Shown here: positions 35,608-62,396 of the stretch, piece by piece
Numbering within the stretch: the first letter of the stretch is position 1
How the letters are laid out: every line of letters starts with the position of its first letter
Source of the DNA: a virus
Length of the DNA stretch: 64,000 nt
IMG/VR virus record: IMGVR_UViG_3300023179_000035
Location: 52,395-116,394 of that record
Reading direction: 5' to 3' (one strand)
Position numbers and translations under genes: made by a program
The notes under the pieces: generated by a model
Databases searched by the model: none
The model's input: only the letters and a program-made list of their open reading frames with translations
Told to the model about the DNA's origin: nothing

Positions 35608-36117
35608 ATGAGTCCCGATAAAGACGCCGCTCTCTGCGCCAAGTATCCCAAGATCTTTCGTGATCGTAACGCACCGATGAACCAGACCTGCATGTGCTGG
35701 GGATTTGACGTCGGAGACGGCTGGTACGACCTGATCGACACCCTGTGCGACGACATCCAGAATGAAGTTGACAACGACGTTCGCCAGCAGGGCTACAAGA
35801 TCGAGCGTGGCGACCTGAAGCCAGAGGACGCAATCCCTGAGGAGGACATGCAGGTCGTTGCCATACAGGTCAAGGAGAAGTTCGGTGGCTTGCGCTTCTA
35901 CACCAGCGGTGCCTCCGAGCGTGTCGACGGCATGATCTCCATGGCAGAGAGCATGTCATACAAGATCTGTGAGACCTGCGGCAGCCCAGGTCGTCCCAAC
36001 AAGGACGGGTGGATTGCTACGCTTTGTGACCCATGCCGAGAAGCTCGCGACAAGGAGAGAGCTGCCCGTGATGCCGAGCTAAAGAGCAGGCTGGACCTCA
36101 AGCAAGGCACGCCGTGA
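35608..36117 (+). CDS. Phage hypothetical protein with C-terminal Zn ribbon
   Basis: GDGWYDLI...QVKEKFGGLRFY...CETCG...LCDPC. Confidence 0.7.
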   Translation: MSPDKDAALCAKYPKIFRDRNAPMNQTCMCWGFDVGDGWYDLIDTLCDDIQNEVDNDVRQQGYKIERGDLKPEDAIPEEDMQVVAIQVKEKFGGLRFYTSGASERVDGMISMAESMSYKICETCGSPGRPNKDGWIATLCDPCREARDKERAARDAELKSRLDLKQGTP

Positions 36118-36965
36118 AGCTCGCCTGGTGCACAGACATCCACTTGGACTTCCTGGACGGTCCCGGCAGGCCGAATACTATTTACCAGGATTTTGCCAAA
36201 CCGCTGTCTGACGTAGACAGCGACGCGGTCATGATTACAGGAGATATCTCCCTCTCCAGCATGCTGCCTCGTCATCTGTCAGATCTTGAGGCTGTCGTTA
36301 GAAAGCCAATCTACTTTGTCCTTGGAAACCACGATATTTACGGAAGCTCATTTGGCGCTGTACACGACCAGGTAAAAAACCTGTGCTCGTCATCAAAGAA
36401 CCTGAAGTACTTGACAGGGTCGGGTCCGGTCTCTCTCACGAGAAAGACTGCACTCGTCGGAGACGACGGTTGGTACGACGCTTACCACGGCGACGCTTCG
36501 CGATCTCCCTACGTCATGTCGGACTGGGTCCAGATCGCTGACTACGTCAACGCTGGCTGCGCTCAGAGCACTGGGATGTATGGCCCACGGCCTAACATGG
36601 GAAGCGTCATCGCTATCTCTCGAAAGATTGCTTTTGACGCGGCCGAGAGGATGAGGGCTGCCGCTTCGGCCGCGTCAAAGTCTCACAAAGTCGTCGTCAT
36701 CCTCACACATGTGCCGCCGTGGGTTCAGGCGCATCGACTCGATGGCAAGAGTGGGTCAGTTGTAGCGCACCCGTGGTACACTTCTAAGCTGATGGGCGAC
36801 GCGATCGAGGAGGTCGCGAGAGAGCACCCCAGCGTACGATACGAGGTCTTTTGTGGCCACACACACGGGCAGTACGACGCTAAGATAGCAGACAATGTCT
36901 CCTGTCATGTCGGAGGCGCTGAGTACGGCAAGCCTGACATCGTAGGCACTGTATTACTTGAATAG
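36114..36965 (+). CDS. Calcineurin-like metallophosphoesterase
   Basis: TDIH, TGD, GNHD, THVPP, GHTH. Confidence 0.9.
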   Translation: MKLAWCTDIHLDFLDGPGRPNTIYQDFAKPLSDVDSDAVMITGDISLSSMLPRHLSDLEAVVRKPIYFVLGNHDIYGSSFGAVHDQVKNLCSSSKNLKYLTGSGPVSLTRKTALVGDDGWYDAYHGDASRSPYVMSDWVQIADYVNAGCAQSTGMYGPRPNMGSVIAISRKIAFDAAERMRAAASAASKSHKVVVILTHVPPWVQAHRLDGKSGSVVAHPWYTSKLMGDAIEEVAREHPSVRYEVFCGHTHGQYDAKIADNVSCHVGGAEYGKPDIVGTVLLE

Positions 36966-40310: not shown

Positions 40311-40331
40311 CTTAGGCTGTCGCGCCAAATG

Positions 40332-40362
40332 AAAACGGCCTCCGAGCGGAGGCCGTTTTTTT
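40332..40362. terminator. Bidirectional Rho-independent terminator between convergent genes
   Basis: AAAACGGCCTCC-GAGC-GGAGGCCGTTTTTTT. Confidence 0.9.
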
Positions 40363-41057: not shown

Positions 41058-41432
41058 ATGGTAGATCGTCTCAAAGAGATGCTACAGCTGCGTGAGCACT
41101 TCATGTCCGAGCTGGCAGCACGGCGACCGATGGTACTGCAGCAGTGGCCTGTCGATATCAAGACCAAGGAGTCACAGCAGGTGGTACGCGACACAGTGCT
41201 GAAGGGCGTCGAGGAGATGTTTGAGTCCCTGCAGCACCTCAAGAACTGGAAGCCTCACAGGGACACAGAAGTCCGCGACTTTGACCACCAGGCATTCCTG
41301 GAGGAGTACGTCGATGCCTTCAACTACTTCCTGTCAGTGCTCGTCATGCTAGGCATCGACGCAGACGAGTTCTACGAAGCCTACCTCCGGAAGGACGCGA
41401 TCATCCACGAGAGGCTCAAGGTCGGGTACTGA
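41058..41432 (+). CDS. All-alpha NTP pyrophosphatase (dimeric dUTPase/MazG-like)
   Basis: EEMFE...KNWKPH...EEYVDAFNY...YLRKDAIIHER..GY. Confidence 0.8.
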   Translation: MVDRLKEMLQLREHFMSELAARRPMVLQQWPVDIKTKESQQVVRDTVLKGVEEMFESLQHLKNWKPHRDTEVRDFDHQAFLEEYVDAFNYFLSVLVMLGIDADEFYEAYLRKDAIIHERLKVGY

Positions 41433-41434
41433 GG

Positions 41435-42379
41435 ATGATAGACTGGTCCAACCTAGGCGCAGCCCTCCAGGCCCAGCGGTGCTTCTCTGATATTTTCTTT
41501 GAATCCTCGTCCATGTCTGACGAAGAAAAGACGCGACAGTTCAAGTCTTTCCTGCTGTCTCTCCACTCTGAGCTGTCAGACCTGGCAGGGGCTGTTAACT
41601 ACAAGGACCACCGTCCTGGGACACACGTTGACCGCCAGAAAATTCTATTTGAGTCTGTCGACGTCTACCGTTACCTGCTCGCAGTATTAAACCTGTGGGG
41701 CATTGACGCTGGCACCTTCGCGTCTGCCCTGGAACAGAAGGACCACCTCTTGCATTACAGGCACCTGTTGCAGCAGAGGTCTTGGGCTGGGCAGCCTGTC
41801 GTCCTGTTCGACATGGACGACGTCCTCGCGGGCTTCAGGGACAAGTTCTGCGAGTTCTCCACCCAGCGGTACGGCTTCTTCGTAGACCCTGACAGCCCTG
41901 AGTACTACAACACTAACGCCTTCAAGGCCCACGGCGCCTCCGACGCAGACGCTTTCGCTGAGTTCATAGACGCTCGTGGGTTCTCGACGCTGGGGGTCAT
42001 ACAGCCCTACATGGACTTGATGTTCTCTTTGAAGGAGATGGGTTACTGGGTCCACATCGTCACAGCCCGACCAGAACGCAGTAGGTTCTGCTACCACGAC
42101 ACCTACTCCTGGCTGTCGAGGCACAGCGTGCCCGCTGACGCTGTCACATTTACCCCTGAGAAGTACGCGTGGCTCGTCGGCCAGCCCTACGTGTCGTCTG
42201 CCGGGCTCTTCGCCATCGACGACTCTCCCAAGCACGCTGCGGAGTACGCGAAGCACGGGGTCAGGGTCCTGGTCCCATCGAGACCGTATAATAGGGAGAT
42301 CGCCGGCCTGAAGAACGTTACTTACGTTGGCCCGGACGATAGCCCGCTAGACAAAGTGAGAGAACTTCTCTCCTTGTAA
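41435..42379 (+). CDS. Fusion of an all-alpha NTP-PPase-like domain and a HAD 5'(3')-deoxynucleotidase
   Basis: N-terminal SELSDL...ESVDVYRY; C-terminal FDMDDVL, IVTAR, K, IDDSPKH, PYN. Confidence 0.75.
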   Translation: MIDWSNLGAALQAQRCFSDIFFESSSMSDEEKTRQFKSFLLSLHSELSDLAGAVNYKDHRPGTHVDRQKILFESVDVYRYLLAVLNLWGIDAGTFASALEQKDHLLHYRHLLQQRSWAGQPVVLFDMDDVLAGFRDKFCEFSTQRYGFFVDPDSPEYYNTNAFKAHGASDADAFAEFIDARGFSTLGVIQPYMDLMFSLKEMGYWVHIVTARPERSRFCYHDTYSWLSRHSVPADAVTFTPEKYAWLVGQPYVSSAGLFAIDDSPKHAAEYAKHGVRVLVPSRPYNREIAGLKNVTYVGPDDSPLDKVRELLSL

Positions 42380-42415
42380 TAGGGAAACATAGGCTGTAGT
42401 TTTAAGCGGAGGCAA

Positions 42416-43348
42416 ATGACAATGTCGACAATCACCAATGGCTTCAAGGGCATCAAGGTAACCCTGCTGGACCCAGGCAACGATCGTCCGTTCCAAATGT
42501 TCTGGAACTGGTACAGGGAGACGTGGTACTCACTGCGGGACCAGGAGTATGACCACACCAATCCCGAGCACATCAAGGCTGCAAAGGAGGTCCTAGAAGC
42601 CAAAGCTTTGCCCGTCCCACAGGAGGCGCTTAACTTCCAGATTCGAGTCGAGGGACTCAGTCGAGTCGCCCTGGCCCAGTTCACACGCGGTCGCGTCGGT
42701 TGGGCTTACTGCGTCACGTCGCAGATGCCAGAGAAGATCGAGCACGACGTCATCGTTCCCAAGAACATCTACGAGTCCGAGTTTGGCGCCGAGGCGGCCG
42801 AGCTCGTTCTCAAGTCCCAGAGCCTCTACGAGAAGATGGTGGCGGCAGGAGTTCCTCCTCAAGATTGCCGTTATTTGACGATTCACGGGCAGACGACCAA
42901 CCTGGTCTGCCTCGTCAACTTCATGGCCCTCAAGGGGTACTTCGCACGTCGCTGTGAGAATGGCCTGACAGACGAGCTCAACATGATCGGTCGCCTCATC
43001 CTCCACGAGCTTCGTGTCGCGCACCTCGACGGTGCTGGCAATGACAAGGTGCCAGGCTCAGGCTGGTCTGTCCTCCTCAGCAAGCTAGACGCGATGGGAG
43101 GCAGCAGGGCGTGCCTTAACAACGACAAGGTCTTCGGTAACACTGGCAGGGCGCCGTCGGCCGGCGATTGGATTCCTTCGCCCATCAACGAGAACAACAA
43201 GTGCGACTGGTCCTTCGACAAGTCGGCGTGGTACTACGAGCTCCTGGAGATGCCTGACCACCTCCTCTTCCCAGGCGAGAAGGAGATGATCCAGGACTGG
43301 CGGGACATTGGCTTCGAGGGCCGTCTCCGAAAGATCGAGAAGAAGTGA
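42416..43348 (+). CDS. Divergent ThyX-like flavoprotein
   Basis: EALNFQIRVEGLSRVALAQFTRGRVG...SQ, LYEKMVAAGVPPQDCRY, NFMAL..YFARRC. The RHR-x7-SxR motif is altered. Confidence 0.7.
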   Translation: MTMSTITNGFKGIKVTLLDPGNDRPFQMFWNWYRETWYSLRDQEYDHTNPEHIKAAKEVLEAKALPVPQEALNFQIRVEGLSRVALAQFTRGRVGWAYCVTSQMPEKIEHDVIVPKNIYESEFGAEAAELVLKSQSLYEKMVAAGVPPQDCRYLTIHGQTTNLVCLVNFMALKGYFARRCENGLTDELNMIGRLILHELRVAHLDGAGNDKVPGSGWSVLLSKLDAMGGSRACLNNDKVFGNTGRAPSAGDWIPSPINENNKCDWSFDKSAWYYELLEMPDHLLFPGEKEMIQDWRDIGFEGRLRKIEKK

Positions 43349-43872
43349 TGGGCGGCCAGCTCGTAGTCATCTATGACAGCGTCGATGGGACAGGCAAGAC
43401 CCACATGGCCCAGGAGCTGTCACGCCGCACAGGAGTGCCGTACTTCAAGAACGCGGACGAGCACAAGTACTTCTTGCGCGACCCTGAGTACTTCATCCAC
43501 GCTATCAGGTACGTCGACTCGTATTTCACTTCCTACCTAGAGGCTTCCAAGGCCTCTGTCATCCTGGACAGGGCTTGGCCGTCAGAGTTTGTCTACAGCC
43601 ACGTGCTGGGCCGGAAGACAGACATGGAGGTGCTTCGCGACTTGGACTCCCGACACGCGGCCCTGGGGACGAAGATCGTCATCCCATTCAGGTCCTCGTA
43701 CGTGGGAATACGGGACGACTACGAGCTGGTCACCAACAACGTCCAGAAGATCCACGACAGGTACATGGAGTTCGCAGCGTGGACGCAGTGCAGCACCCTG
43801 CTGCTCAATGTCGATGACGAAGACATGGAGCGCGAGATGTCAGAGACGATGGTCTTCCTGGAGGCTGCGTGA
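43345..43872 (+). CDS. Second dNMP kinase (thymidylate kinase-like P-loop)
   Basis: YDSVDGTGKTH, ILDRAWPSEFVY. Confidence 0.8.
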   Translation: MMGGQLVVIYDSVDGTGKTHMAQELSRRTGVPYFKNADEHKYFLRDPEYFIHAIRYVDSYFTSYLEASKASVILDRAWPSEFVYSHVLGRKTDMEVLRDLDSRHAALGTKIVIPFRSSYVGIRDDYELVTNNVQKIHDRYMEFAAWTQCSTLLLNVDDEDMEREMSETMVFLEAA

Positions 43873-44450
43873 TCTTACAGCGTATCAACACCCGCGGCGG
43901 AGGGGTCCTGTTAAAGTTCCCATGCAACGAGCCGAGGCCGGGGCAGTGCGTGGCCTTTGACGGCAAGTACTTCGTCATCGCGCACCACTTCAACGGCGTC
44001 GGCGCCGTCTTCACCAAGCCCAAGTCTGCCATCGACCTCCCACATGGGACCCACGTCGACCTATCGAAGCCAGTCGGCAAGGGCTTCAATGTGGAGGCTA
44101 TCGAATTGACGCCTGTCATCGTTACGGGTGGCACGGGTTTTGCTGCAGGCCTATCGCTCCTGAGACATTTTTACGAGTCGAAGCAGGACTTTCGAATGGT
44201 AGCCTACACCCGCCAGCCTTCGCAAGTCGATGACGTCACAGGCCTGCTTGCTGTACCTCGTGATGACAGGCTCCAAACGTGGAACACGCAACTCCTAGGA
44301 CGCCCTGCCGCTCCACTGGACCCATTGAATATTTCAATCACAGCCTCAACACCTGTCTTCTTTGCAGGACCAAAAGAGCTCCACGAAGCGCTAAGAACAG
44401 ACCTTGATAAAAGAGGGCTGAGTGACGTTACAATTCGACTCAATTACTGA
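43869..44450 (+). CDS. Ferredoxin-NADP reductase superfamily / flavin reductase-like protein
   Basis: PRPGQ, PVGKGF, VTGGTGFA, FFAGP, and a C-terminal aromatic residue (RLNY). Confidence 0.65.
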   Translation: MILQRINTRGGGVLLKFPCNEPRPGQCVAFDGKYFVIAHHFNGVGAVFTKPKSAIDLPHGTHVDLSKPVGKGFNVEAIELTPVIVTGGTGFAAGLSLLRHFYESKQDFRMVAYTRQPSQVDDVTGLLAVPRDDRLQTWNTQLLGRPAAPLDPLNISITASTPVFFAGPKELHEALRTDLDKRGLSDVTIRLNY

Positions 44451-44453
44451 AAG

Positions 44454-44465
44454 GTACCTAGGTAC
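44454..44465. promoter_or_regulatory. Perfect 12-bp palindrome, candidate operator upstream of the RHH/GIY-YIG cassette
   Basis: GTACCTAGGTAC, about 30 nt upstream of the RHH ATG. Confidence 0.4.
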
Positions 44466-44494
44466 TTTTGAACCTGAAGGAGATACGTATAGCC

Positions 44495-44662
44495 ATGAGA
44501 CAAACGAAGGTCACGATCGACGAAGAGACTCACAAGCAGCTAAAGGTGTACTGTGCACAGCACGGTCTACTGATGAGCCAATTCCTCTCGGAGATCATTC
44601 GAGAGAGGATTGGCAACAATGTGGACAGTAAAGACAGTACAGGAAATTCCGACAAACCCTAA
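44495..44662 (+). CDS. Ribbon-helix-helix DNA-binding protein
   Basis: TKVTIDEETHKQLKVYCAQHGLLMSQFLSEIIRERI. Confidence 0.7.
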   Translation: MRQTKVTIDEETHKQLKVYCAQHGLLMSQFLSEIIRERIGNNVDSKDSTGNSDKP

Positions 44663-45788
44663 GATGATGGGGATCTATCAGATCACCAATACAGTCAATG
44701 GAAAGAAGTACGTTGGGAAGAGCAAGAACATACGATTGCGATGGATGGGGCACATCGGTGCCAATCGAAAAGGGAAAGCTGTCAACAAGCATTTCCAGCA
44801 TGCTTGGGACAAATACGGGGAGGACAACTTCACTTTTCACATTCTCGAGATTGTCACTGATGAGTCCCAGCTTGGTATGAGAGAGAAACTTCTTGTAGAA
44901 GAGCACAATCCTGAATACAATGTTTCTATTGTTGATGATGGTCAGTGGACCATGACCTCTGAAGAATGTGAGAAACGAAGACAGAGAAGGCTTCAAGCAG
45001 ATCCGCAGTGGAACAAAAGAATAGGTGAAGCTCTTCGAGGTAAGAAGAAGAGCGAAGAACATACACGTAAGATGATCATGGGTCTCACGGGCAGGAAAAT
45101 GACCCCTGAACAGATTGAGAAGATTCGAAAATCTTCAACTGGCAGATCAGTTCCTGATTATGCGAGAAAGAAAATTGCAGAGAAGGCTAAGGGAAACCAA
45201 CGCTGGAAATTTAGGACTGACGCCTGGCGTGAGAAGGTCAGAGCCGCTGTCAAAAGAACACATGAGTTAATGCGACAACGTCGTCAAGCTAAGAAAGAAA
45301 AGGAAGAAATGATGAAAAATTCAAATGGTTTTGGTCGTAAGCTAGCATGCTATTTAGCGTCAGGTTGGTTCTCACCTGACCAGGATAAGCAGCTGACCAA
45401 GCTCGAGGCAGTCTTCGACAGCCGAGCCGACTGGATCAACCTGGCGTCACCCCGTCGAATCTTCGTGTGTCCGCCGGATGCTTCGCAGGAGGTGCAAGAC
45501 AACGTCTTCAGCGGCAACGTGAAGCACATCAAGGAGGCTGACTTCACTCTCGTCAACACCACCTATCGTGACATCGGCACGATCTGGGAGGCCGGCGCAG
45601 CTTACGCGTACGGCACGAAGATCGTTTACTTCTGCGAAAATCTGCCACCTGGCGCCAAGTTTAATCTTATGCTCAGTAGAAGCGGCATTAAAGTCTGCAC
45701 CACCTTCGAGCAGCTTGAAGACTATCTGGAGCGCTGTAAGGCCGCTGGCGAGATGCTCTACGAGCCATACGACAAAGAGATTGAGTAA
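44610..45788 (+). CDS. GIY-YIG homing endonuclease (NUMOD3-like repeats) fused in frame to a nucleoside 2-deoxyribosyltransferase-family domain (probable own start at 45309)
   Basis: GIYQITNTVNGKKYVG...R...E...YN and GKKKSEEH repeats, then YLASGWFS...DIGTIWEAGAAYA...FNLML. Confidence 0.8.
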   Translation: MATMWTVKTVQEIPTNPKMMGIYQITNTVNGKKYVGKSKNIRLRWMGHIGANRKGKAVNKHFQHAWDKYGEDNFTFHILEIVTDESQLGMREKLLVEEHNPEYNVSIVDDGQWTMTSEECEKRRQRRLQADPQWNKRIGEALRGKKKSEEHTRKMIMGLTGRKMTPEQIEKIRKSSTGRSVPDYARKKIAEKAKGNQRWKFRTDAWREKVRAAVKRTHELMRQRRQAKKEKEEMMKNSNGFGRKLACYLASGWFSPDQDKQLTKLEAVFDSRADWINLASPRRIFVCPPDASQEVQDNVFSGNVKHIKEADFTLVNTTYRDIGTIWEAGAAYAYGTKIVYFCENLPPGAKFNLMLSRSGIKVCTTFEQLEDYLERCKAAGEMLYEPYDKEIE

Positions 45789-45862
45789 GTGAAAAACTCG
45801 GCATGAGTAGTGTACCATCAGGATGGCCCTCAAAAAGCCATCCTGATTTCATTTGGAAAACA

Positions 45863-46732
45863 ATGAGCCAAATCCTATTGCCTCCCTCACGGTTTGTTAG
45901 CCTACACTCGCATAGTCACTTCAGTACTTATGACGGGGTCGGTTACCCAGCCGACCACGCTAACTTTGCACTAAAGAATGGCTTAGACGCTTGGTCCCTG
46001 ACAGACCATGGCAATGGCAACGGCCTTGCCCACGCTCACGCTCACGCCAAGAAGTTGAAGTCCAAAGGGGCGAAGTTCCGCCAGCTCTACGGCGTCGAGT
46101 TCTATTTCGTCCCTGACCTAGCCGACTGGAAGGTCCGCTATGACCTAGCCAAGAAAGAGAAGGGGCAGGAGGGCGACAAGAAGGCTGAAGACGAGGAGGA
46201 GGCAGGCCTGGTCGTAGAGGATGCAGACGAGACGCGGTCGGACAACGACAGGTTCGTAGACATCAACAAGCGTTACCACCTCGTCGTTGTCGCCAAGAAT
46301 AGGGTCGGCCTCTCTAACCTCTTTACGCTGGTCAAGAAGAGCTACGTCGACGGCTTCTATAAGTTCCCACGCATTGACTTTAACCTGCTGAAGCAGCACG
46401 GCGAAGGGTTGGTGGTTTCAACTGCGTGTCTTACAGGTGATGCGGAACTCGTGACCGATGGGGGAACAGAGACACTTCTCAGCGTTATCGAGAGATATAA
46501 GCAGGGAGAAAATCCTGTTGTTCTTTCTTTCAATGAATCGAATAAGGAACTTCAATTCAAGCGAGTTTTGTGGGGAGACAAAACGAGAACTTCCGCTAAG
46601 ATCGTCAAAGTAAAAACTGCAGATGGTAAAGAAGTTAGACTCACTCCCGACCATCAGGTCCTAACAAACAAGGGGTGGCTTCGAGCAGATGAGCTAAAGA
46701 GAAATATGCCAGTCAAGATTGTTTCTTTGTGA
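45863..46732 (+). CDS. dnaE: DnaE fragment 1 (PHP domain) plus 101-aa split-intein N-fragment (Cys1 at 46427)
   Basis: LHSHSHFSTYDG, TDHGN, GVEFY, HLVVVAKN, PRID, VSTA|CLTGDAELV...LTPDH...stop. Confidence 0.92.
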   Translation: MSQILLPPSRFVSLHSHSHFSTYDGVGYPADHANFALKNGLDAWSLTDHGNGNGLAHAHAHAKKLKSKGAKFRQLYGVEFYFVPDLADWKVRYDLAKKEKGQEGDKKAEDEEEAGLVVEDADETRSDNDRFVDINKRYHLVVVAKNRVGLSNLFTLVKKSYVDGFYKFPRIDFNLLKQHGEGLVVSTACLTGDAELVTDGGTETLLSVIERYKQGENPVVLSFNESNKELQFKRVLWGDKTRTSAKIVKVKTADGKEVRLTPDHQVLTNKGWLRADELKRNMPVKIVSL

Positions 46733-46737
46733 AACAA

Positions 46738-46772
46738 CTACCGCCTAGACATCCATATTGCTTAGGAGGTAG
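46738..46772 (+). promoter_or_regulatory. Hairpin sequestering the SD of the endonuclease gene
   Basis: CTACC-G-CCTAG pairs with TTAGG-A-GGTAG, covering AGGAGG. ATG at 46779. Confidence 0.6.
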
Positions 46773-46778
46773 CCGTTA

Positions 46779-47738
46779 ATGAATTCAGCAAGAAACGCCT
46801 ATGAAAAAAGACTTGAAACTTTCAAACAAGTAATCACGACATGGAAATCAGAAAAAGAAATTTTCGATTTGTACGAAAGTTGTTGTACACCTCGCCAAGT
46901 CATCTCTTTGTTTCGACATCAAATTGTTGATGATTTCAATGATCTGCAGAAAAGAAACGTTTTGCTTCTGAACGATAATCGTCTAGTAAAAATGCTAAGG
47001 GACATAGTTCCATACAGTAAAGAACAACACGTTCGGCATCTCGCAATGCCGCAATGGTGGAAGATACGTTTTCGTCATCTTGATAAGTCAGAAGAAGAAG
47101 TTAAACAACTCGCTGTCGCACAGCAGCGAGAATGGGCATCAAATACTCACGCTGTTAGAAAAAAGAAAGCTCATTATAATCCTAAACAAACAACTCAACA
47201 CTGGATTGATTTGGGATTTTCACCTGCCGACGCCCAACTAAAGGCCAGAGAGTTCAAAAGATCATGTTCACCTTTCACTGTTGAGTTTTGGAAACGTAAG
47301 GGTTTCTCTGAAGAACAGGCTCAAGAAAAGGCAACAGCACTGCACGTACGAGGAGGGACAGCGACATGTGCTGCTCAGGACAAAAAGTTTGTATCTAAAC
47401 TCGAGCAAGATATTTTTGAACAACTGCAATCTAGAATTTCTCGTTCTCTTAAGCAACAGCACGCCATTAACTGGCAATTTGTTTATGACATCTGCGATCT
47501 TGAAAAGAAGAAGATCATTGAGGTTAATGGAACATATTGGCACGCAGACTCTCGTGTATATCCAAAAGACGACATGATAGTATGCAATGGTCTGACAGCA
47601 GCCGCAGTGCATGCTCGAGATATTGAGAAATCTGAATACGCCAAAAACTTTGGATATCAAGTGCTGGTAATTTGGGAAATCGATTGGCACGCCGACAAAG
47701 AATTGTCACTTCAAAAAATGATTGAGTTTCTTTCATAA
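46779..47738 (+). CDS. Free-standing homing endonuclease (Vsr/EDxHD-like) between dnaE fragments 1 and 2
   Basis: AT-rich. Repeated W...GFS.E.A units; SKLEQ...YDI...IIEVNGTYWH...RD..K...GYQVLVIWE. Confidence 0.85.
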   Translation: MNSARNAYEKRLETFKQVITTWKSEKEIFDLYESCCTPRQVISLFRHQIVDDFNDLQKRNVLLLNDNRLVKMLRDIVPYSKEQHVRHLAMPQWWKIRFRHLDKSEEEVKQLAVAQQREWASNTHAVRKKKAHYNPKQTTQHWIDLGFSPADAQLKAREFKRSCSPFTVEFWKRKGFSEEQAQEKATALHVRGGTATCAAQDKKFVSKLEQDIFEQLQSRISRSLKQQHAINWQFVYDICDLEKKKIIEVNGTYWHADSRVYPKDDMIVCNGLTAAAVHARDIEKSEYAKNFGYQVLVIWEIDWHADKELSLQKMIEFLS

Positions 47739-47745
47739 GAGAAAT

Positions 47746-50211
47746 ATGACAAACCACAAGTTCATTGACGTTATTGAAGTAGAAGATCTTGATTACACAG
47801 AAGATGTATATGATATCACCGTCGAGGACAACCATAATTTTTTTGCAAATGGCATGGTTGTTCATAACTGCGTCGGGGGATACCCCTCCGGGCTAATTTA
47901 TGGCGAGTTCGTAGACAAGAAGTTCGCCGAGCTGACGCCTGAGCTCGTCGATGACGACGCCGTCAGGAGCAGGATCCGTAATCGCCTAGAGAACATGGTC
48001 GACAGATTCGTAGACTGCGTCGGGCACGAGAACTTCTTCCTTGAGCTGCAGTTCAACAAGCTGTCTGCCCAGGACCTGACCAACAGGATGCTGATCGAGA
48101 CGTCCAGGGCGACTGGGTGCAGGTTGATCTCTACGGCAGACTCACACTACCCGGAGCCAGAGCTGTGGGAGGCTCGAGAGATCTACCGCCAGCTACAGCC
48201 GGGGCGGATGAAGATTGGCTCAGAGCCAAAGCCACTTCCAAAGAAGGAGGAGCTGAAGGCAGAGCTCTACCCCAAGAACGCCCAGCAGATGTGGGACGAG
48301 TACCTGTCTCGCAGGGAGCTGTTCCTTTGGTACCAGGGCACCGAGGACATCGTCAGGACGTCCATGGAAAATGGCCACGATGTGGCGTGGGACCTGTGCG
48401 AGGAGATCTGGTTCGACCCTTCTGCGAAGCTTCCGACGTTTAGCACCCCTGAGAAGACGGGGTTCTCCCAGCTCGTCGACCTCGTCAAAGAGGGCCTCAG
48501 GGCGGAGGGCCTAGACCAGAAGCCAGAGTACGTCGCTCGTGCCAAGATGGAGCTAGACGACATCAAGTACTTGAAGTCTGAGGACTACTTCCTGACACTC
48601 CAGAAGGTCTTTAAGCTCGCAGAGAATAGGACCCTTCCAGGCAGCGGCCGAGGCTCAGGAGCCGGGTCCCTGGTCAACTACCTCCTCGGTATCACTCACG
48701 TTGACCCGCTGAAGTACGACTTGCTGTGGGAGAGGTTCATGGGCCGCCACAGGGCTGGATTTCCGGATATCGATACTGACGTCGGCGATCGTGACAAGCT
48801 GATCGAGGCGGCTCGTGAGATCTTTGGCAATGACGCGGTGGTGCCTGTGTCCAACTTCAACACGCTGAAGCTAAAGTCGCTCGTCAAGGACGTCTCTAAG
48901 TTCTACGGCGTGCCATTCGAGGAGGTCAACGCCATGACTGGGCCGCTGGAGCGCGAGGTCGAGATGAAGTCACGCGACCCGAACATGGAGAAGTCCATGT
49001 TCGTCCTGAAGCACGAGGACTGCCTGGAGCACTCCGAGAACTACAGGAACTTCATGGCGAAGTACCCGCACGTGGAGGAGAAGATCCGGACGCTGTTCAT
49101 GATGAACAGGTCAGTCGGCCGCCACGCTGGAGGCGTCCTTATCTGCCCACAGCTGGAGCAGCACATGCCTCTCATCACTGTTCGCGGAGAGCTCCAGACC
49201 CCGTGGACAGAGGGTGTCAACATCCGAAACCTAGAGGAGAACGGATTCCTCAAGTTCGACTTCCTCGGCATCAAGCAGATGAAGATGGTGGAGGACTGCA
49301 TCGCCAGGATCCTCCGCAGAGAGCTGGGCCACGAGCCCAAGTTCGAGGACATCAAGAAGTTCTATGACGACAAGCTCAACTGCCGGTACGTCGAGCCCAG
49401 CGACGATCGCGTCTTCGAACACGTCTATCGCAACGACAGGTGGACGGGCATCTTCCAGTTCACCAGCGACGGAGCCAGGAAGTTCTGCCACGAGGTCCAG
49501 CCCTCCTCCATCGAGGACATCGGTGTCGTCACAGCCATCTACCGCCCGGGCCCCCTAAAGGCAAACGTCCACAAGAAGTACGTCGCTGCGAAGCAGGACG
49601 CCTCTAAGGCCCGGTATGACCACCCTGTCATCAAAGATGTCCTGGGCACCACGTACGGCTTCATCGCCTTCCAGGAACAGTTCATGATGCTGGCCCAGAA
49701 GCTGGCCGGCTTCTCGCCGGGCGACTCCGACAAGATGCGAAAGACGCTGGTCAAGAAGGACCTGACCAGCCTCGGTAAGAAGTCAGAAGAGAAAGAGTCC
49801 CTGGAGAAGAAGTTCGTCGAGGGCTGCGTCGAGGTCAGTGGGATGGACCGCGACAAGGCCAAGGAGCTATTCGATAAGATCTCATTCTTCTCACTCTACG
49901 GATTTAACAAAAGTTTGTACTTTCTTCAGAAGGTGAATATTATTAGAGATGGAAATGAGATGGACCTGGCGATCGAAGACGTCATGCCGGGAGACATGGT
50001 CATGACCCGCGACGAGAAGACTGGCGAAAACCTTAGGACTGCCGTCGTCGAAAAGCACGACCACGGCGTTCTCGACCTCTTTGAGATCACACTTGACACA
50101 GGAGAAAAAGTGACATGCACGTTGGACCACAAGTTCAGGACAAAATGCGGCAGGATGCTGCCCCTGAAGACGATTGTCCAGATGGACCTGGAAATCGTGA
50201 CATCAAGATGA
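47746..50211 (+). CDS. dnaE: DnaE fragment 2: 41-aa intein C-fragment, polymerase core, then 99-aa intein N-fragment (Ser1 at 49912)
   Basis: VYDITVEDNHNFFANGMVVHN|CVGG; GRGSGAGSLV, PDIDTD, HAGG, KFDFLG, GIFQF, YRPGP, FQEQ; YGFNK|SLYFLQKV...CTLDHKF. Confidence 0.92.
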   Translation: MTNHKFIDVIEVEDLDYTEDVYDITVEDNHNFFANGMVVHNCVGGYPSGLIYGEFVDKKFAELTPELVDDDAVRSRIRNRLENMVDRFVDCVGHENFFLELQFNKLSAQDLTNRMLIETSRATGCRLISTADSHYPEPELWEAREIYRQLQPGRMKIGSEPKPLPKKEELKAELYPKNAQQMWDEYLSRRELFLWYQGTEDIVRTSMENGHDVAWDLCEEIWFDPSAKLPTFSTPEKTGFSQLVDLVKEGLRAEGLDQKPEYVARAKMELDDIKYLKSEDYFLTLQKVFKLAENRTLPGSGRGSGAGSLVNYLLGITHVDPLKYDLLWERFMGRHRAGFPDIDTDVGDRDKLIEAAREIFGNDAVVPVSNFNTLKLKSLVKDVSKFYGVPFEEVNAMTGPLEREVEMKSRDPNMEKSMFVLKHEDCLEHSENYRNFMAKYPHVEEKIRTLFMMNRSVGRHAGGVLICPQLEQHMPLITVRGELQTPWTEGVNIRNLEENGFLKFDFLGIKQMKMVEDCIARILRRELGHEPKFEDIKKFYDDKLNCRYVEPSDDRVFEHVYRNDRWTGIFQFTSDGARKFCHEVQPSSIEDIGVVTAIYRPGPLKANVHKKYVAAKQDASKARYDHPVIKDVLGTTYGFIAFQEQFMMLAQKLAGFSPGDSDKMRKTLVKKDLTSLGKKSEEKESLEKKFVEGCVEVSGMDRDKAKELFDKISFFSLYGFNKSLYFLQKVNIIRDGNEMDLAIEDVMPGDMVMTRDEKTGENLRTAVVEKHDHGVLDLFEITLDTGEKVTCTLDHKFRTKCGRMLPLKTIVQMDLEIVTSR

Positions 50212-51203
50212 ATTATACGTATCGTTGCACTCGATGCGGACGTAATGTGGGGCACGTGAAAAATGGCATCTCTGTGTCTGAGCATTTGGCCCTGTGTTTC
50301 CCGCAAGGTGTAAGTGGGATCCACTACGTGCAATGCGCTCTGTGCGACTTCGTTGGGATGAAGATCACGCAGCACGTGAGGCTTGTGCACGGCGTCTCTA
50401 AGGAAGACTATCAGTCGAAGCACGGTCGCCTTATCTGCGAAAACTCCTCACGCAACTATGGGTCGACAGGTAACTACGATTGGATCAAGAGGGCCCGAGA
50501 AAGGGGCGAAGACCTGACAGAGAGATTCGCCGCCACCGGACCAGCGAAGTCCGCCGGAATCCTCGCCTCCCAGAAGGCGATCGAGGCGAGAAGAAAGAAT
50601 ATGTCTGACTTGAACAGGAGGCCTGAAAGTCGACTGCGGTCGTCAGAGGTCGCCAAAGAGACTTCAAGACGCCCTGAGATCATCGCTCGTCGAACTCATA
50701 ACCTGAGGATGTGGCGCCAACAGAACTTTGAAGACTTTTACGAGAAATGTGTGATGCCGATGATCGGCGCTCTTGAAAAGTTGAATGGTGACGTCCGCCA
50801 GACAGCGCCTGAAAAAGTTCTACAAATCCTCCTGTCGGGAATCGAAGGATACGACTTCAAATATTCTCAGTGCGTCAAGTCCAATCAATTCTCGTCTCTC
50901 TCGAAGAGAAAACAAGTCGACTTTGGGGACAAGTCTCGTCGCGTGTATGTCGAGTTCGATGGAGTTCGTCACTTCAGGGACTTCAATGGGACTCTCAAGA
51001 AAACGAGAGAGCAAGATGAGGCCCTTGACAGGCACATTATCGAACATGGGTGGACCCTGCTTAGAATAAGCTATGACCAGTTCGTTGGTAAAAAATTCTC
51101 AGAAACGTGTGTCAAGAGTTTGTTTGATATTTTGAGCGACCCAAAACCAGGTGTCTTTAGGATTGGAAAGGAATATGAGGTAAAGCGTGGCGAAGATACT
51201 TGA
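50208..51203 (+). CDS. Free-standing homing endonuclease (zinc fingers plus Vsr/EDxHD-like domain) between dnaE fragments 2 and 3
   Basis: CTRC, CALC...HVRLVH; TAPEK...VDF...VEFDGVRH...D...GWTLLRI. ATGA overlap with the upstream stop. Confidence 0.85.
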   Translation: MNYTYRCTRCGRNVGHVKNGISVSEHLALCFPQGVSGIHYVQCALCDFVGMKITQHVRLVHGVSKEDYQSKHGRLICENSSRNYGSTGNYDWIKRARERGEDLTERFAATGPAKSAGILASQKAIEARRKNMSDLNRRPESRLRSSEVAKETSRRPEIIARRTHNLRMWRQQNFEDFYEKCVMPMIGALEKLNGDVRQTAPEKVLQILLSGIEGYDFKYSQCVKSNQFSSLSKRKQVDFGDKSRRVYVEFDGVRHFRDFNGTLKKTREQDEALDRHIIEHGWTLLRISYDQFVGKKFSETCVKSLFDILSDPKPGVFRIGKEYEVKRGEDT

Positions 51204-52227
51204 TATCAAGTACGTAGGTAAACACCAGACCTACGACCTGGAGGTCGACCACCCCGACCACCAGTTCTACCTGGCCAATGGGGTGCTGACGTCCAACTCC
51301 CACGCCATCGCCTACGCAATCGACTCCTACTACGGCGCCTGGCTCATGACCCACTACGAGACAGACTGGCTGGCCACCTGCCTCCAGTCTGAGAACGACA
51401 TCGAGGGCCTGGCCGTCCTCTTCTCCGAGATCAAGGGCATGGGCTACGAGATCGCCCCGCCGGACGTCAACTACTCGTCGTCGACGTGGACCTGGTCCGA
51501 GGAGCTGCGGGCTTTCGTCCCGCCCCTGTCTTCCCTGAAGGGGGTGGGGGACTCTGCCGTGGAAGAGATCCTCGCAAATCGTCCATACAGGTCCGTGGAC
51601 GACATGCTGTGGAACGATGACGGGTCCTGGCGCCACTCAAAGTTCAACAAGAGGGCGCTGGAGGCTCTCATCAAGATGAACGCCCTCACCTCTCTGGGCC
51701 TCGTCGGCGAGGGCAAGGTCTTTGACAACTACAGGCAGGCCTACCACGTCATCGTGGAAAATAACGACGCCATCAAGAAGACCCTGAAGCGGGACCCCTT
51801 CGCTGGTAGGAAGCGGTTCTATGAGCTGGCGCAGGCCTGCAAGGACATGCCGGACTGGACCCTCGCCGAGAAGGTAGAGCACACTGTGCAGTGCTCTGGC
51901 TCGGCTAACGTCGCCACCATCGTCCGGCCAGAGCTGCTGGCCAAGCTCCGCGACAAGGGCGTCAGGTCCATCGACGACTGGGACGGCAAGGACATCTACT
52001 GGTTCCTGGCCAAGTCTGCCACACCGAAGGTGACCAAGAACGGCAAGCAGTACCTGATGCTGGAGGCGCTTGGTCCCACTGGAAAGCTGACACGTCTCAT
52101 GTGCTGGGGCTGGGACGGCAAGAGACAGCTGCAGCAGTACTGCCTGTGCCTCTCGGAGGTGGACAAGAACGACTTCGGGGCCAGCACCAACATGTGGAAG
52201 CTCCGTGAGATTGACCTAGAAAATTGA
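51187..52227 (+). CDS. dnaE: DnaE fragment 3: 37-aa intein C-fragment plus HhH/OB-fold region
   Basis: TYDLEVDHPDHQFYLANGVLTSN|SHAIAY; PPDVNYS; LKGVG; TKNGKQY. GAGG SD. Confidence 0.92.
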   Translation: MAKILDIKYVGKHQTYDLEVDHPDHQFYLANGVLTSNSHAIAYAIDSYYGAWLMTHYETDWLATCLQSENDIEGLAVLFSEIKGMGYEIAPPDVNYSSSTWTWSEELRAFVPPLSSLKGVGDSAVEEILANRPYRSVDDMLWNDDGSWRHSKFNKRALEALIKMNALTSLGLVGEGKVFDNYRQAYHVIVENNDAIKKTLKRDPFAGRKRFYELAQACKDMPDWTLAEKVEHTVQCSGSANVATIVRPELLAKLRDKGVRSIDDWDGKDIYWFLAKSATPKVTKNGKQYLMLEALGPTGKLTRLMCWGWDGKRQLQQYCLCLSEVDKNDFGASTNMWKLREIDLEN

Positions 52228-53430: not shown

Positions 53431-54212
53431 CGCTTACTCGCGCTGCTTGCCTTCCTTGCCGACCTAGCGGCTGGATGCGGGTCCTGGCGGAGGTTGTGGA
53501 GCCTCTCTGACTCCATAGACCCGAAGACGTTTGTCACCTTGTCCGTCTTCGTGTCGAGGACGACCATGTAACCGCCCTTGCTCATTGTCAGGGGCTTTGC
53601 TACGACAGCCAGCCAGTCGAACTTTGCGCTTAAGCTCGCGTAGGAGTCAAACCACGCTGGCAACACGAAATTTGAGACAGACACTTTCGTTCCGTTCTTG
53701 GTCGTCACCTGGTAGAAGTCGTTCTCTACCGGGTCGCACGCCTCGAAGGCTACCATCTTGCTGTTACCCATGTCGGCCCATAGGTTGACGTTAGGGTCAC
53801 AGTAGGCTTCGATCACTTCGTGTGACAAGACCGCTGACACCGACAGGGCTCCGCTGAGGAGCGTCCCGTTGTTTTTTAGCACAGGGTTGACGAAGACGCG
53901 GCCCCACACCTTGCCGCCGGGCGACTCTGTGTGGTAGCCGAGGACCCCCGCCTGGTCTGGGCTGTCAAGGATTACGATGGGGTAGCCGACTGTGTCGGGC
54001 TGGTTTGTCACAATTTTCCAAGTGCCGCGGAGCCACATCGGAGCAACTTGCTGGTTGAGCTGAGTCGTAACGGCCTCTACCATGAGCTGAAAGTTAGCGT
54101 CATTCACCTGCGTTGACTTGTTGATAACGTTGATGGTGGGCACGGTGACGTCGACGACGCTGCCCTTCCTTGCAGGCATGAGCGAAGCGAGGGCGTTGAA
54201 TAGTGTTTTCAT
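53424..54212 (-). CDS. Putative zinc metallopeptidase (HExxE)
   Basis: LGYH...SHEVIEAYCDP...EACDPV...SNFVLPAWF. AGGAGG directly upstream. Confidence 0.55.
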   Translation of the reverse strand: MKTLFNALASLMPARKGSVVDVTVPTINVINKSTQVNDANFQLMVEAVTTQLNQQVAPMWLRGTWKIVTNQPDTVGYPIVILDSPDQAGVLGYHTESPGGKVWGRVFVNPVLKNNGTLLSGALSVSAVLSHEVIEAYCDPNVNLWADMGNSKMVAFEACDPVENDFYQVTTKNGTKVSVSNFVLPAWFDSYASLSAKFDWLAVVAKPLTMSKGGYMVVLDTKTDKVTNVFGSMESERLHNLRQDPHPAARSARKASSASKRQ

Positions 54213-54262
54213 GCCTCCTAAGTATTGTGTATAATTGTCGACAGCGCAGTATGTTGTTAGGC

Positions 54263-55216
54263 ATGCATCGTAGTGTCCTAATAACTGGGGTCGCTGGGTT
54301 CATTGGATCAAACCTTGCAGCTGAGTGTGCCCGCCTCGGGTGGCGTGTCACCGGTGTGGATGACCTGTCCAGCGGCGACCAAAGGTTCCTGCCCGGTGGA
54401 GTCGAGTTCGTCAGGGCTGACTTCTCTGACGGCCAAGTGCTTCGAGAGGTCGAGGGCGGCGCTTATGATACAGTCTTCCACCTAGCTGCCCAACCACGGG
54501 TCTCGCACTCTGTCGAGCGTCCATTCGACACGAATGAGACGAATGTCTCGAAGTCTCTTAGGCTGATGGAGGCCTGCCGCGGTAGGGTAGGCAGGCTCGT
54601 CTTCGCCTCAAGTTCAGCTGTGTACGGCGACTCCCCCACGCTGCCTGCCCAAGAGTCTTCCATGAAAGACCCACAGTCGCCCTACGGCCTCCAGAAGCTG
54701 GTCGTGGAAGACTACCTCAGGCTGTTCTGGCGCCTCTACCGCCTAGACTCTGCTTGCCTACGTTTCTTTAACGTCTTTGGCCCAAACCAGCGGGGCGGCT
54801 CTCCTTACTCCACAGCTGTCAGCGCTTGGCTCCACGCGATACACTCTGGGGTCTCAATGCGGTCAGACGGCGAGGGCGACCAGTCACGCGACATGGTCCA
54901 TGTCGACAACGTCGTGTCAGCCCTTGTCCTGGCGGCTGAGCACAGGGGACCTCTGATGGGTGAGGCTTTCAACGTAGGCACAGGCCACCGCGTCACAAAC
55001 AACGAGATCCTAGAGTACCTGCTGGCAGTCTTCCCCTGGGCCCAGAGCCATTCAGCGCCGAGGAGGCCTGGTGACGTGATGCACACGCAGGCTGACATTC
55101 GTAGGTCAGCGTCGGTCCTGGGCTACAGGGTCGTCAAGGAGTTCTGGCCGGGCCTGGACGACACTATCAGGTGGGCCGCCGACAACAGGGAGCTCTTCCT
55201 CGGCACGCGGCTGTAA
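54263..55216 (+). CDS. NAD-dependent nucleotide-sugar epimerase/dehydratase
   Basis: ITGVAGFIGS, HLAA, ASSSAVYG, SPYGLQK, RFFNVFGP, RDMVHV. Confidence 0.92.
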   Translation: MHRSVLITGVAGFIGSNLAAECARLGWRVTGVDDLSSGDQRFLPGGVEFVRADFSDGQVLREVEGGAYDTVFHLAAQPRVSHSVERPFDTNETNVSKSLRLMEACRGRVGRLVFASSSAVYGDSPTLPAQESSMKDPQSPYGLQKLVVEDYLRLFWRLYRLDSACLRFFNVFGPNQRGGSPYSTAVSAWLHAIHSGVSMRSDGEGDQSRDMVHVDNVVSALVLAAEHRGPLMGEAFNVGTGHRVTNNEILEYLLAVFPWAQSHSAPRRPGDVMHTQADIRRSASVLGYRVVKEFWPGLDDTIRWAADNRELFLGTRL

Positions 55217-55263
55217 CTCTAGGCAAAACAGAGTCACACGATGGTGTACGGTACGCCCAAGAC

Positions 55264-55839
55264 ATGCTAGCCAACCCAGAGTTTATCATCTTTACGGGCC
55301 CGATGTTCGCGGCCAAGACGTCTTCGCTAATCCTGTCGCTAGAGAGGTTTAAGTACCAGAAGAAGAGGATCGAGCTCTTCAAGCCGGTCATCGACGACAG
55401 GTACAACTCTGACTCTGTGGTGACACACGGAGGTGTCTCGGTTCCCGCTAGGTGTGTCACGCTTGGCACTGACATCCTGAGGTACCTGGCTGACATCAAC
55501 GAGGAGCCCCACGTCGTGGCTGTCGACGAAGCCTTCATGATCAGTGGCGTCTCCGACGTGCTCGTCTACCTGTACAAGCTAGGCTTCACCATCATTGTAT
55601 CGAGCCTCGACATGTCCGCCGCAGGCAAGCCTTTCGTCGAGATGGAGAAGATGATGCCGTGGGCCACGCAGGTCCACAAGCTGACAGCTGTCTGCACGGT
55701 CTGTGGCAGGGACGCTCACTTCACCCACAAGAAGCACGTCGGCGGTGACGAGATTGAAGTGGGCGGGTCCGAGATGTACGAGCCTAGGTGTGCCTCACAC
55801 TACCCTGTCGTCTTCGACATGAAGACTAATGGCGCCTGA
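55264..55839 (+). CDS. tdk: Thymidine kinase (type II)
   Basis: GPMFAAKT, FKP.ID.RY, VDEA, CTVC, VGG.E.YEPRC..H. Confidence 0.92.
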   Translation: MLANPEFIIFTGPMFAAKTSSLILSLERFKYQKKRIELFKPVIDDRYNSDSVVTHGGVSVPARCVTLGTDILRYLADINEEPHVVAVDEAFMISGVSDVLVYLYKLGFTIIVSSLDMSAAGKPFVEMEKMMPWATQVHKLTAVCTVCGRDAHFTHKKHVGGDEIEVGGSEMYEPRCASHYPVVFDMKTNGA

Positions 55840-58806: not shown

Positions 58807-59100
58807 ATGGCAGACGGAGACACAAGCACAAAGGTCGTAAGTCCTGACGTACCACAGCCCCCAGCGCCGGGTCCTGCCTGGTTCTGGCTGAAGGACAACT
58901 CAGGAAAGAGCTCTGCAACGCTGACCTTCGCCACTGTCTCCTTCTTCGTGACGACAGCCGCCTACGCCCTGTCGACTGTGCAGACAGTCGGTGGCGTCTC
59001 TCTTAGGCCCTTTGACCCGTCATCTTGCGCAGCCTACCTCGGGACGACTTTCGCCCTGTACTTTGGCCGCAGGTTCACTGACGCGAAGTTCGGAGCGTAG
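58807..59100 (+). CDS. Small two-TM protein (holin-like?)
   Basis: SATLTFATVSFFVTTAAYAL and AAYLGTTFALYFGRRFT. Confidence 0.45.
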   Translation: MADGDTSTKVVSPDVPQPPAPGPAWFWLKDNSGKSSATLTFATVSFFVTTAAYALSTVQTVGGVSLRPFDPSSCAAYLGTTFALYFGRRFTDAKFGA

Positions 59101-59101
59101 G

Positions 59102-62392: not shown

Positions 62393-62396
62393 CAAC

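Follow-up and report, generated by a model that had tools for sequence, protein, structure and literature searches.

Why should a virus that already encodes one flavin-dependent thymidylate synthase (ThyX) carry a second, divergent ThyX-family gene within a run of nucleotide-handling genes? The question is raised by positions 41058-45788 of a 64,000-nucleotide stretch of viral DNA (the window), corresponding to bases 52395-116394 of IMG/VR record IMGVR_UViG_3300023179_000035. The record comprises 116,394 bases and was judged only 32% complete; its source is therefore a very large phage. Seven open reading frames (ORFs) were found in this region, all on the + strand, with gaps or overlaps of no more than 36 bases, lying directly 5' of dnaE at 45803. 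A preliminary description of the stretch had named six co-oriented genes at this position as a candidate base-modification pathway, and all six are present. The divergent gene is here designated ThyX-2, and the other copy of the window ThyX-1. Genes, folds, motif states and a conserved linkage were observed in this study, and the best explanation of them, for and against which we find the case evenly balanced, is that the module carries out pre-replicative synthesis of a C5-modified uracil-type deoxynucleoside monophosphate (dNMP) with purging of the competing nucleotide.

The features of the run are as follows.

41058..41432, + strand: MazG-like all-alpha NTP pyrophosphohydrolase, 124 aa (PF08761 dUTPase_2, 27.1 bits; phrog_12184, E 4.7e-16).
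41435..42379, + strand: fusion of a MazG-like domain with a HAD NT5C-type 5'(3')-deoxyribonucleotidase, 314 aa (PF06941, 38 bits; phrog_2643 deoxyribonucleotidase).
42416..43348, + strand: ThyX-2, 310 aa (PF02511 Thy1, 61.3 bits, residues 64-200 only).
43345..43872, + strand: small Tmk-fold dNMP kinase, 175 aa (phrog_761 thymidylate kinase, E 1.5e-5; fold from an AlphaFold2 model).
43869..44450, + strand: putative flavin reductase of the FNR-like, NAD(P)H-dependent kind, 193 aa (motifs, weak NCBIfam matches and ESM Atlas structure).
44468..44662, + strand: ribbon-helix-helix (RHH) protein, 64 aa (weak RHH Pfam and PHROG matches).
44664..45311, + strand: GIY-YIG homing endonuclease (PF01541, 48.6 bits, residues 19-104; phrog_314, E 1.9e-31).
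45312..45788, + strand: N-deoxyribosyltransferase (NDT; PF05014, 43.6 bits; phrog_7995, E 5.4e-24).

ThyX-2 belongs to the ThyX family, its PF02511 score lying well above the gathering score of 24.8 bits. Against the equivalog model TIGR02170 it reached 38.5 bits, below the cut-off of 87.9, and ThyX-1 of the window reached 139.7. The AlphaFold2 model, computed from an alignment with 37 homologues, had a mean predicted local distance difference test (pLDDT) of 92.1. Foldseek comparison of this model returned ThyX structures for all of the top matches, with a template-modelling (TM) score by target of 0.72 to T. maritima ThyX at 16-18% identity. The active-site motif, RHR-x7-S-x-R-Y in canonical ThyX, was RGR-x8-SQMP in ThyX-2 (R91-G92-R93 and S102-Q103-M104-P105); the reading RGR-x7-SQM given earlier had missed a one-residue insertion. 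In an alignment of 38 homologues, which had 50 invariant columns, the S, Q, M and P of this motif were invariant and G92 nearly so. A C-terminal extension of approximately 105 residues was equally conserved and contained an invariant D-x-V-x-G-x-x-G-R stretch (DKVFGNTGR in the window).

In T. maritima ThyX, we take His53 to stack on folate and His79, Arg165, Asn169 and His178 to be contacts of flavin adenine dinucleotide (FAD), and Arg174 and Gln75 presumably read the uracil, specifically its 4-oxo group. Residues of ThyX-2 were mapped onto this enzyme by profile-to-sequence alignment. Retained were Arg78 (R91), Arg80 (R93), Ser88 (S102), Arg147 (R152), Asn163 (N168), Arg174 (R179), Gln75 (Q88) and Glu58 (E70). 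Altered were His53 (L65), His79 (G92), Glu86 (V100), Gly89 (Q103), Arg90 (M104) and Tyr91 (P105), and further Arg165 (M/A170), Asn169 (G174) and His178 (G183). According to PMC11940539, Tyr91 and Ser88 of ThyX are strictly conserved and critical, with Tyr91 likely being the general acid beside Arg90. In the account given by PMC6514825, the conserved Tyr is a lid that keeps solvent off uracil C5 and flavin N5, and Arg174 and Gln75 are among the residues holding deoxyuridine monophosphate (dUMP) in solved ThyX structures. Judged by this alignment, ThyX-2 appears to have kept the residues that hold the nucleotide phosphate and the uracil, whereas the folate platform, the lid/acid pair and several of the FAD contacts are missing. 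With the equivalents of Gln75, Arg174 and the phosphate-binding arginines kept, the substrate would more probably be of the uracil than of the cytosine type. ThyX-2 is thus predicted to be a conserved, well-folded ThyX-fold protein without residues that canonical ThyX needs, and its earlier designation as a divergent ThyX paralogue agrees with both model and alignment.

The ThyX-2 family was found to be distributed among uncultured viruses. A word-indexed search returned 205 homologues; the best 120 of them were 45-91% identical, most being about 290-340 aa long, on contigs of up to 241 kb. An exhaustive profile search found 24 cluster representatives at E<=1e-30 among 1.84 billion, and the family is therefore compact. 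Among cultured phages, no relative was detected by megablast, and tblastn of ThyX-2 gave 31 records, all below 60% identity and none covering 80% of the query. Single-sequence searches of the PDB with ThyX-2, the MazG protein and the MazG-HAD fusion gave chance-level matches only. No publication describing the family was found in the literature, supplementary tables not being covered by the search.

For the analysis of gene neighbourhoods, IMG/VR was scanned with the ThyX-2 alignment. This yielded 73 loci (numbered with the prefix L; genomes carry the prefix G), of which 27 contained full-length ThyX-2 (25 distinct at 97% identity) and 46 contained other ThyX and served as controls. The ThyX-2 loci fell into group A, with 57-81% identity to the window, group B, with 37-41% identity and including complete 56-59 kb phages with terminal repeats, a single locus at 33%, and group C at 30-32%. 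A Tmk-like kinase was present in 24 of the 25 distinct loci, the remaining one stopping at the contig edge. NDT was present in 22/25 and a 5'-deoxynucleotidase in 19/25, the latter being HAD-type in 9 and YfbR-like HD-type in 10. MazG was found in 11/25, all in the window's clade, DnaE 3' of the module in 10/25, and the FNR-like protein in 6/25. None of the kinase, NDT, nucleotidase, MazG, DnaE and FNR-like components was detected in the 46 control loci with these HMMs (hidden Markov models), which were built iteratively from the loci themselves and are family-specific, so that remote homologues in the controls could escape them. Since related viral contigs carry the gene set again and 0/46 control loci do, it is not a chance assembly, and the conserved module expected from the single sequence was borne out by its neighbourhood.

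The lasting core consists of ThyX-2, the kinase, NDT and the 5'-deoxynucleotidase. MazG, the FNR-like protein and the position of dnaE are limited to the window's clade; their linkage is lineage-specific and not general. The window's clade has a HAD NT5C-type nucleotidase, the distant clades a YfbR-like HD-type one (PF12917, 67 bits); the exchange of one enzyme for a non-homologous one argues for selection on the nucleotidase activity as such. In groups B and C, NDT adjoins the YfbR-like HD gene.

The partner enzymes were examined individually. In the 124-aa MazG-like protein, both acidic metal-binding motifs (EExxE and ExxD) could be read from the translation. In the fusion protein, residues 121-293 match NT5C and retain the HAD motifs DMDDV and DD, and the N-terminal ~115 residues form a domain homologous to the free-standing MazG-like protein of 124 aa (E 2e-38 with an iterated HMM). 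We take the motifs D-x-G-T-x-x-E-x-G and NLM to define NDT catalysis; both, together with a C-terminal Glu, were conserved in NDT when 25 homologues were aligned. The PF05014 score of NDT exceeded the threshold of 28.8 bits, and its closest solved relative was 6evs, an N-deoxyribosyltransferase (E 1.8e-10). From these motifs, MazG, the nucleotidase (MazG-HAD or YfbR-like HD) and NDT look catalytically intact.

The start of the kinase gene overlaps the stop of ThyX-2 by 4 bases. Sequence matches of the kinase were weak; its AlphaFold2 model had a pLDDT of 91.2, and thymidylate kinases were the top Foldseek matches, with TMq (TM score by query) up to 0.69. These results agree with the dedicated second dNMP kinase proposed at the outset.

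For the 193-aa FNR-like protein, no Pfam or PHROG match was found, and NCBIfam matches to FNR-family reductases were weak (E 3e-4 and weaker, far below the cut-offs). Its predicted structure in the ESM Atlas matched FNR-type modules over residues 1-193 with TM scores of 0.79-0.83. The motifs GKGF, GGTGF (which includes GGTG, the NAD(P)-binding motif of two-domain FNR folds) and GPK and a C-terminal Tyr were present, the motifs being conserved in 7 homologues, and the protein was 26-35% identical among relatives. Prediction of a complex between ThyX-2 and the FNR-like protein gave a score of 0.00, which speaks neither for nor against pairing. In group C, the most distant clade, an aldo/keto reductase gene adjoins ThyX-2 (L046 9996-11027 and L047 7892-8920). 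Three unrelated NAD(P)H enzymes thus occur in the same position, namely the FNR-like protein in the window's clade, the aldo/keto reductase in group C, and a short-chain dehydrogenase/reductase (SDR) in Bacillus phage SP-15.

NDT is encoded by the last ~158 residues of a 392-aa ORF (44610-45788), in frame after the GIY-YIG endonuclease with no stop codon between them, and an ATG ATG occurs at 44664, immediately 3' of the RHH stop codon. The 2-deoxyribosyltransferase-family gene of the preliminary description was real, and what had gone unmentioned was the endonuclease sharing its ORF, as well as the RHH ORF; both are insertions between the FNR-like gene and NDT. NDT is free-standing, with about 145-175 aa, in 23 of the 24 NDT-bearing related loci, and the fusion to the endonuclease is common only to the window and L028. 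The RHH ORF was likewise present only in the window and L028, perhaps weakly in L006. The RHH protein and the homing endonuclease are probably a mobile cassette outside the pathway.

Beyond the module, the following features of the window bear on its interpretation.

23589-24179, + strand: trimeric dUTPase (dut), a source of dUMP (PF00692, 100.6 bits).
32319-33092, + strand: ThyX-1 (PF02511, 144.2 bits; TIGR02170 as given above; K-Y-Q replaces RHR).
33089-33670, + strand: Tmk beside ThyX-1 (PF02223, 40.7 bits).
45803..52227, + strand: dnaE (PolIII alpha), in pieces, neighbour outside the module (intein-like junctions; HHH_6; tblastn to phage DnaE, 27-31% identity).
54203..55216, + strand: nucleotide-sugar epimerase/dehydratase-family protein (PF01370, 185.8 bits; phrog_540 nucleotide-sugar epimerase, 229 bits).
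55171..55839, + strand: TK1-type thymidine kinase (TK; tdk) (PF00265, 137.5 bits).

In relatives without insertions, epimerase orthologues lie immediately 3' of DnaE (L023, L024, L025, L035 and L036), and TK orthologues lie 3' of the epimerase (L023, L024, L035 and L036). The epimerase and TK beyond dnaE may belong to a wider unit with the module, and the association of the epimerase at 54203 with the pathway, at first only suggested, is seen as synteny in these relatives. A LicD phosphotransferase gene was found within about 4.5 kb downstream in 6/7 group-B loci. In L042 (8055-13229), which belongs to the complete 57.6-kb genome G007, the genes follow one another in the order NDT, YfbR-like HD, ThyX-2, kinase, LicD, an epimerase/dehydratase-family protein, an IspD-like cytidylyltransferase and dUTPase; a CDP-polyol style transfer set thus lies inside the nucleotide module of this locus.

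From the observations on ThyX-2 and its partners we infer as follows what the enzyme acts on and makes, which way the flux runs and how the product may come to be in virion DNA. ThyX-2 would bind a uracil-type (d)NMP stacked on flavin and, lacking the folate-stacking His as well as the general-acid/lid Tyr with its partner Arg, would release a product other than dTMP (the thymidine monophosphate). The likeliest products would be 5-hydroxymethyl-dUMP, formed by addition of water to the exocyclic methylene, or a 5-hydroxy pyrimidine dNMP arising from reduced flavin and O2. The adjoining Tmk-fold kinase would take the product to the diphosphate and, in the window's clade only, the FNR-like protein would keep the flavin reduced. 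MazG, the MazG-HAD fusion and NDT would break down the competing canonical deoxynucleoside triphosphate (dNTP) as far as the deoxynucleoside, whose deoxyribose they would transfer to another base. TK could phosphorylate the deoxynucleoside made by NDT and would in this way return it to the pool. As a broader and more tentative proposal, in which we place somewhat less confidence than in the pathway itself, ThyX-2, kinase, NDT and 5'-deoxynucleotidase may be a portable four-gene cassette that installs a modified thymine-type base in freshwater giant phages as well as in those of 57-59 kb, the hydroxyl being decorated in the small phages with a polyol-phosphate by the LicD/IspD-like genes.

An analogous case of known chemistry is phage SP-15, in which about half of the thymine is replaced by hypermodified 5-(dihydroxypentyl)uracil (PMC5977210). 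In its genome (KT624200), the genes for an NDT (gp127), for an SDR reductase (gp129) and for a divergent ThyX (gp130) lie within three genes of one another, and that for another ThyX, gp9, lies beside a deoxynucleoside kinase gene. The authors of PMC5977210 put forward the hypothesis that thymidylate is made by gp9 and hydroxymethyl-dUMP by gp130. If replacement were partial, as it is in SP-15, the proposed pathway would be compatible with the ThyX-1, Tmk and TK of the window's genome.

Several observations weigh against a C5-modified uracil product. The genome of the window makes dTMP and its diphosphate dTDP and salvages thymidine, and this sits badly with a purge of thymidine nucleotides unless the replacement is partial. 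The FNR-like gene, to which flavin reduction was assigned, occurs in just 6 of the 25 distinct loci. No glycosyltransferase or other DNA-decorating enzyme was recognised among the window ORFs by family scans. Comparison of SP-15 gp130 (413 aa) with the ThyX-2 profile by hhalign gave a probability of 0.1, so that no relationship beyond the fold is detectable by profile, and the SP-15 parallel is therefore an analogy of architecture and not of ancestry; the role of gp130 is itself a hypothesis. Loss of signature residues alone is no proof of a new activity, because a large ThyX subfamily, to which ThyX-1 belongs, is also without RHR. In ThyX-1, RHR is replaced by K-Y-Q, after which 18 residues are inserted, and HGH and SGRY are kept. 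This subfamily gave 1042 matches at E<=1e-10, and its K and Y did not vary among 15 aligned sequences; it includes bacterial-size contigs, and the sources name the protein FAD-dependent thymidylate synthase. The ordinary thyX, tmk, tdk and dut reported elsewhere in the window are all there, but the thyX departs from the ordinary in this motif. Finally, ThyX-2 was the only PF02511 match, with no ThyA, in G007 and G008 (both 100% complete), G006 (96%) and G009 (86%). The original argument that a spare thyX frees the set from supplying dTTP (thymidine triphosphate) consequently fails in the complete 56-59 kb phages with ThyX-2 alone. In group B, moreover, ThyX-2 is accompanied by dUTPase and a Tmk-like kinase, and in G008 also by a deoxycytidine monophosphate (dCMP) deaminase, which is the layout of an ordinary thymidylate pathway.

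These sole-copy genomes and their gene layout support the strongest rival, which we rate as possible and clearly below the modification pathway. It holds that ThyX-2 is a divergent true thymidylate synthase (dUMP to dTMP) working with a thymidylate kinase, that the nucleotidase, NDT, MazG and TK are salvage or house-cleaning enzymes rebalancing pools from degraded host DNA, and that giant phages carry two sets. The kinase fold closest to thymidylate kinases, the retained Arg, Gln and Ser equivalents that contact phosphate and uracil, and the existence of a large and presumably active ThyX subfamily without RHR are all in keeping with it. It has to accommodate, however, the invariant changes of Tyr91 to Pro and Arg90 to Met and the change of the folate-stacking His to Leu, the first two positions being reported as conserved and critical in PMC11940539. 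Two ThyX genes were found in G001 (93% complete), G010 (100%), the fragments G003, G004 and G005, and the window. In all six of these genomes or fragments ThyX-2 is paired with another ThyX, and plain redundancy is unlikely to have lasted across 30-81% divergence. In the window, ThyX-1 has its own adjoining Tmk, so that a second synthase-kinase pair exists in one genome. The rival also has to explain why NDT and the nucleotidase are tied to ThyX-2 and absent from the 46 control loci, although the family HMMs could miss remote NDTs.

A mixed tetramer, in which ThyX-1 (without RHR, keeping SGRY) and ThyX-2 (keeping R-x-R, without R-Y) would complement each other, was considered and rejected as the leading idea. 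In relatives of the window, the ThyX-1 that accompanies ThyX-2 is of another lineage (K-H-R ... S-A-R-Y), complete genomes have ThyX-2 alone, and K-Y-Q occurs widely alone.

A cytosine substrate is improbable in our judgement. In this scheme, the product of ThyX-2 would be a 5-substituted dCMP, on which the kinase would then act, and MazG would serve as a T4-like dCTPase. The gene content fits T4-type logic (dCTPase, dCMP-modifying synthase and dNMP kinase), there is no conflict with the ThyX-1, Tmk and TK of the same genome, and flavin-dependent 5-hydroxy-dCMP synthases are described in the ThyA superfamily (PMC13326640). Set against this, the equivalents of Arg174 and Gln75, which PMC6514825 lists as holding dUMP, are invariant in ThyX-2, the kinase fold is nearest to thymidylate kinases, the dUTPase and dCMP deaminase of relatives feed dUMP, and the presumed substrate would be depleted by any nucleotidase that attacks dCMP. 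Of the two products first envisaged, a 5-substituted dCMP or dUMP, the uracil type is favoured by the kept Arg and Gln residues and the cytosine type is disfavoured. A purine-replacement (2-aminoadenine, dZ) pathway, with MazG, the nucleotidase and NDT standing beside an unrelated ThyX-2/kinase pair, is largely rejected and very improbable: MazG-like, HD/YfbR-like and NDT proteins are components or associates of dZ pathways (10.1101/2025.10.22.683976), and short adenylosuccinate-synthetase-family proteins occur in G001 (L099 7572-8588, 338 aa) and G010 (L100 7615-8727, 370 aa), but PF00709 is absent from the complete G007 and G008, which retain HD, NDT, ThyX-2 and kinase, the G001 protein, encoded ~210 kb away from the module, matches PurA (E 4.8e-54) far better than it does solved PurZ (E 3.6e-16 to 4.7e-20), and no PF00709 was found in the window's record, though that record is only 32% complete.

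The stretch was found in public lake-water and freshwater metagenome runs (10 rows, all assembled contigs and none RNA), with at least half of the sampled words present in three runs, one from lake water, which may be the source sample, and two from freshwater in another study. In a promoter and terminator scan of the window, counts were no higher than in shuffled sequence, the sole clear signal being a terminator-like hairpin at 40331-40360, 5' of the module. The dnaE gene is split by intein/endonuclease insertions. The genes for recA, the ribonucleotide reductase large subunit and dnaE (21067-23755, 26590-31951 and 45803-52227) are all fragmented with intein-like junctions, and free-standing endonuclease genes (Vsr/DUF559-type and HNH) separate their pieces; the window genome is heavily invaded by mobile elements. 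Further phosphohydrolases encoded by the window are an HD-domain protein (19164-19781) and a calcineurin-like metallophosphoesterase (36114-36965). No family match was obtained for the window ORFs at 52780-53430, 53424-54212 (- strand), 56870-57376, 58991-60733 and 62337-63425.

To our knowledge, all biochemically established pre-replicative pyrimidine modifications of phage DNA start from ThyA-family enzymes. If the proposed pathway is true, a modified DNA base would for the first time be known to arise by a flavin/ThyX-based route, the T4/SPO1-type strategy would have originated twice independently, and the unassigned second ThyX of SP-15-like phages would be explained. The pathway would also flag a set of uncultured phages with DNA that may be refractory to restriction enzymes and may give misleading sequence reads, and would provide a new set of flavin enzyme, kinase and NDT for making modified nucleotides. 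If ThyX-2 is instead an ordinary thymidylate synthase, ThyX works without the "essential" Tyr, Arg and His, which matters for the design of ThyX inhibitors. As a compact family occurring in complete small genomes, ThyX-2 can be tested by gene synthesis and enzyme assay without culture of the phages.

Compared with known systems, ThyX-2 shares with canonical ThyX/FDTS (flavin-dependent thymidylate synthase, EC 2.1.1.148; TM0449, PDB 1O26/4GT9) the fold, PF02511 and the phosphate- and uracil-contacting residues, and differs in the altered His, Arg, Tyr and Asn positions, the motif insertion, the C-terminal extension and the TIGR02170 score below cut-off. A ThyX paralogue with a changed substrate range is PolB of polyoxin biosynthesis, which acts on UMP and dUMP beside a housekeeping ThyX (PMC5954106). 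PolB differs from ThyX-2 in that it still methylates and sits in a bacterial antibiotic cluster.

Pre-replicative pyrimidine replacement with ThyA-family enzymes is known from T4 (gp42, gp56 and gp1; 5-hydroxymethylcytosine, hmC), from SPO1-type phages (5-hydroxymethyluracil, hmU) and from RB69 and DLP3. With these systems, the module would share the logic of a synthase paralogue, a dedicated dNMP kinase and a competitor-removing pyrophosphatase or nucleotidase. The combination of a putative base-modifying synthase with its own putative kinase was found as a Tmk-fold kinase beside ThyX-2 in 24/25 loci. The ThyA homologues of RB69 and DLP3 are described as flavin-associated 5-hydroxy-dCMP synthases using O2 (PMC13326640), and enzymes of the thymidylate synthase superfamily can therefore leave folate chemistry. 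The T4, SPO1, RB69 and DLP3 systems differ from the module in using a ThyA-family synthase in contrast to the unrelated ThyX fold, and the module adds NDT and a fusion that would strip dNTPs to deoxynucleosides. In dZ phages, NDT co-occurs with a YfbR-like HD enzyme, and one NDT prefers canonical dA, which fits purging (10.1101/2025.10.22.683976); this parallel lends support, by analogy, to the purging role first suggested for the pyrophosphatase, nucleotidase and NDT. The association of NDT with YfbR-like HD in dZ phages (DatZ) is the same as in groups B and C. In dZ phages, however, a purine is replaced in a PurZ-dependent manner, and the partner in the module is a ThyX-fold protein.

SP-15 resembles the window in having two ThyX-family genes per phage, the divergent copy lying with NDT and an NAD(P)H-type reductase, and gp130 turned up when structures similar to the ThyX-2 model were sought (E 3e-6, rank 11). 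The LicD/IspD-like genes of group B recall the teichoic-acid-like genes proposed for the SP-15 side chain. SP-15 differs in that its reductase is an SDR and not FNR-like, and no small kinase or nucleotidase is annotated adjacent to gp130. By these comparisons, the module is classed as a putative pre-replicative base-modification set in which a ThyX-fold enzyme replaces the ThyA-fold synthase, its product being presumably a modified uracil-type nucleotide.

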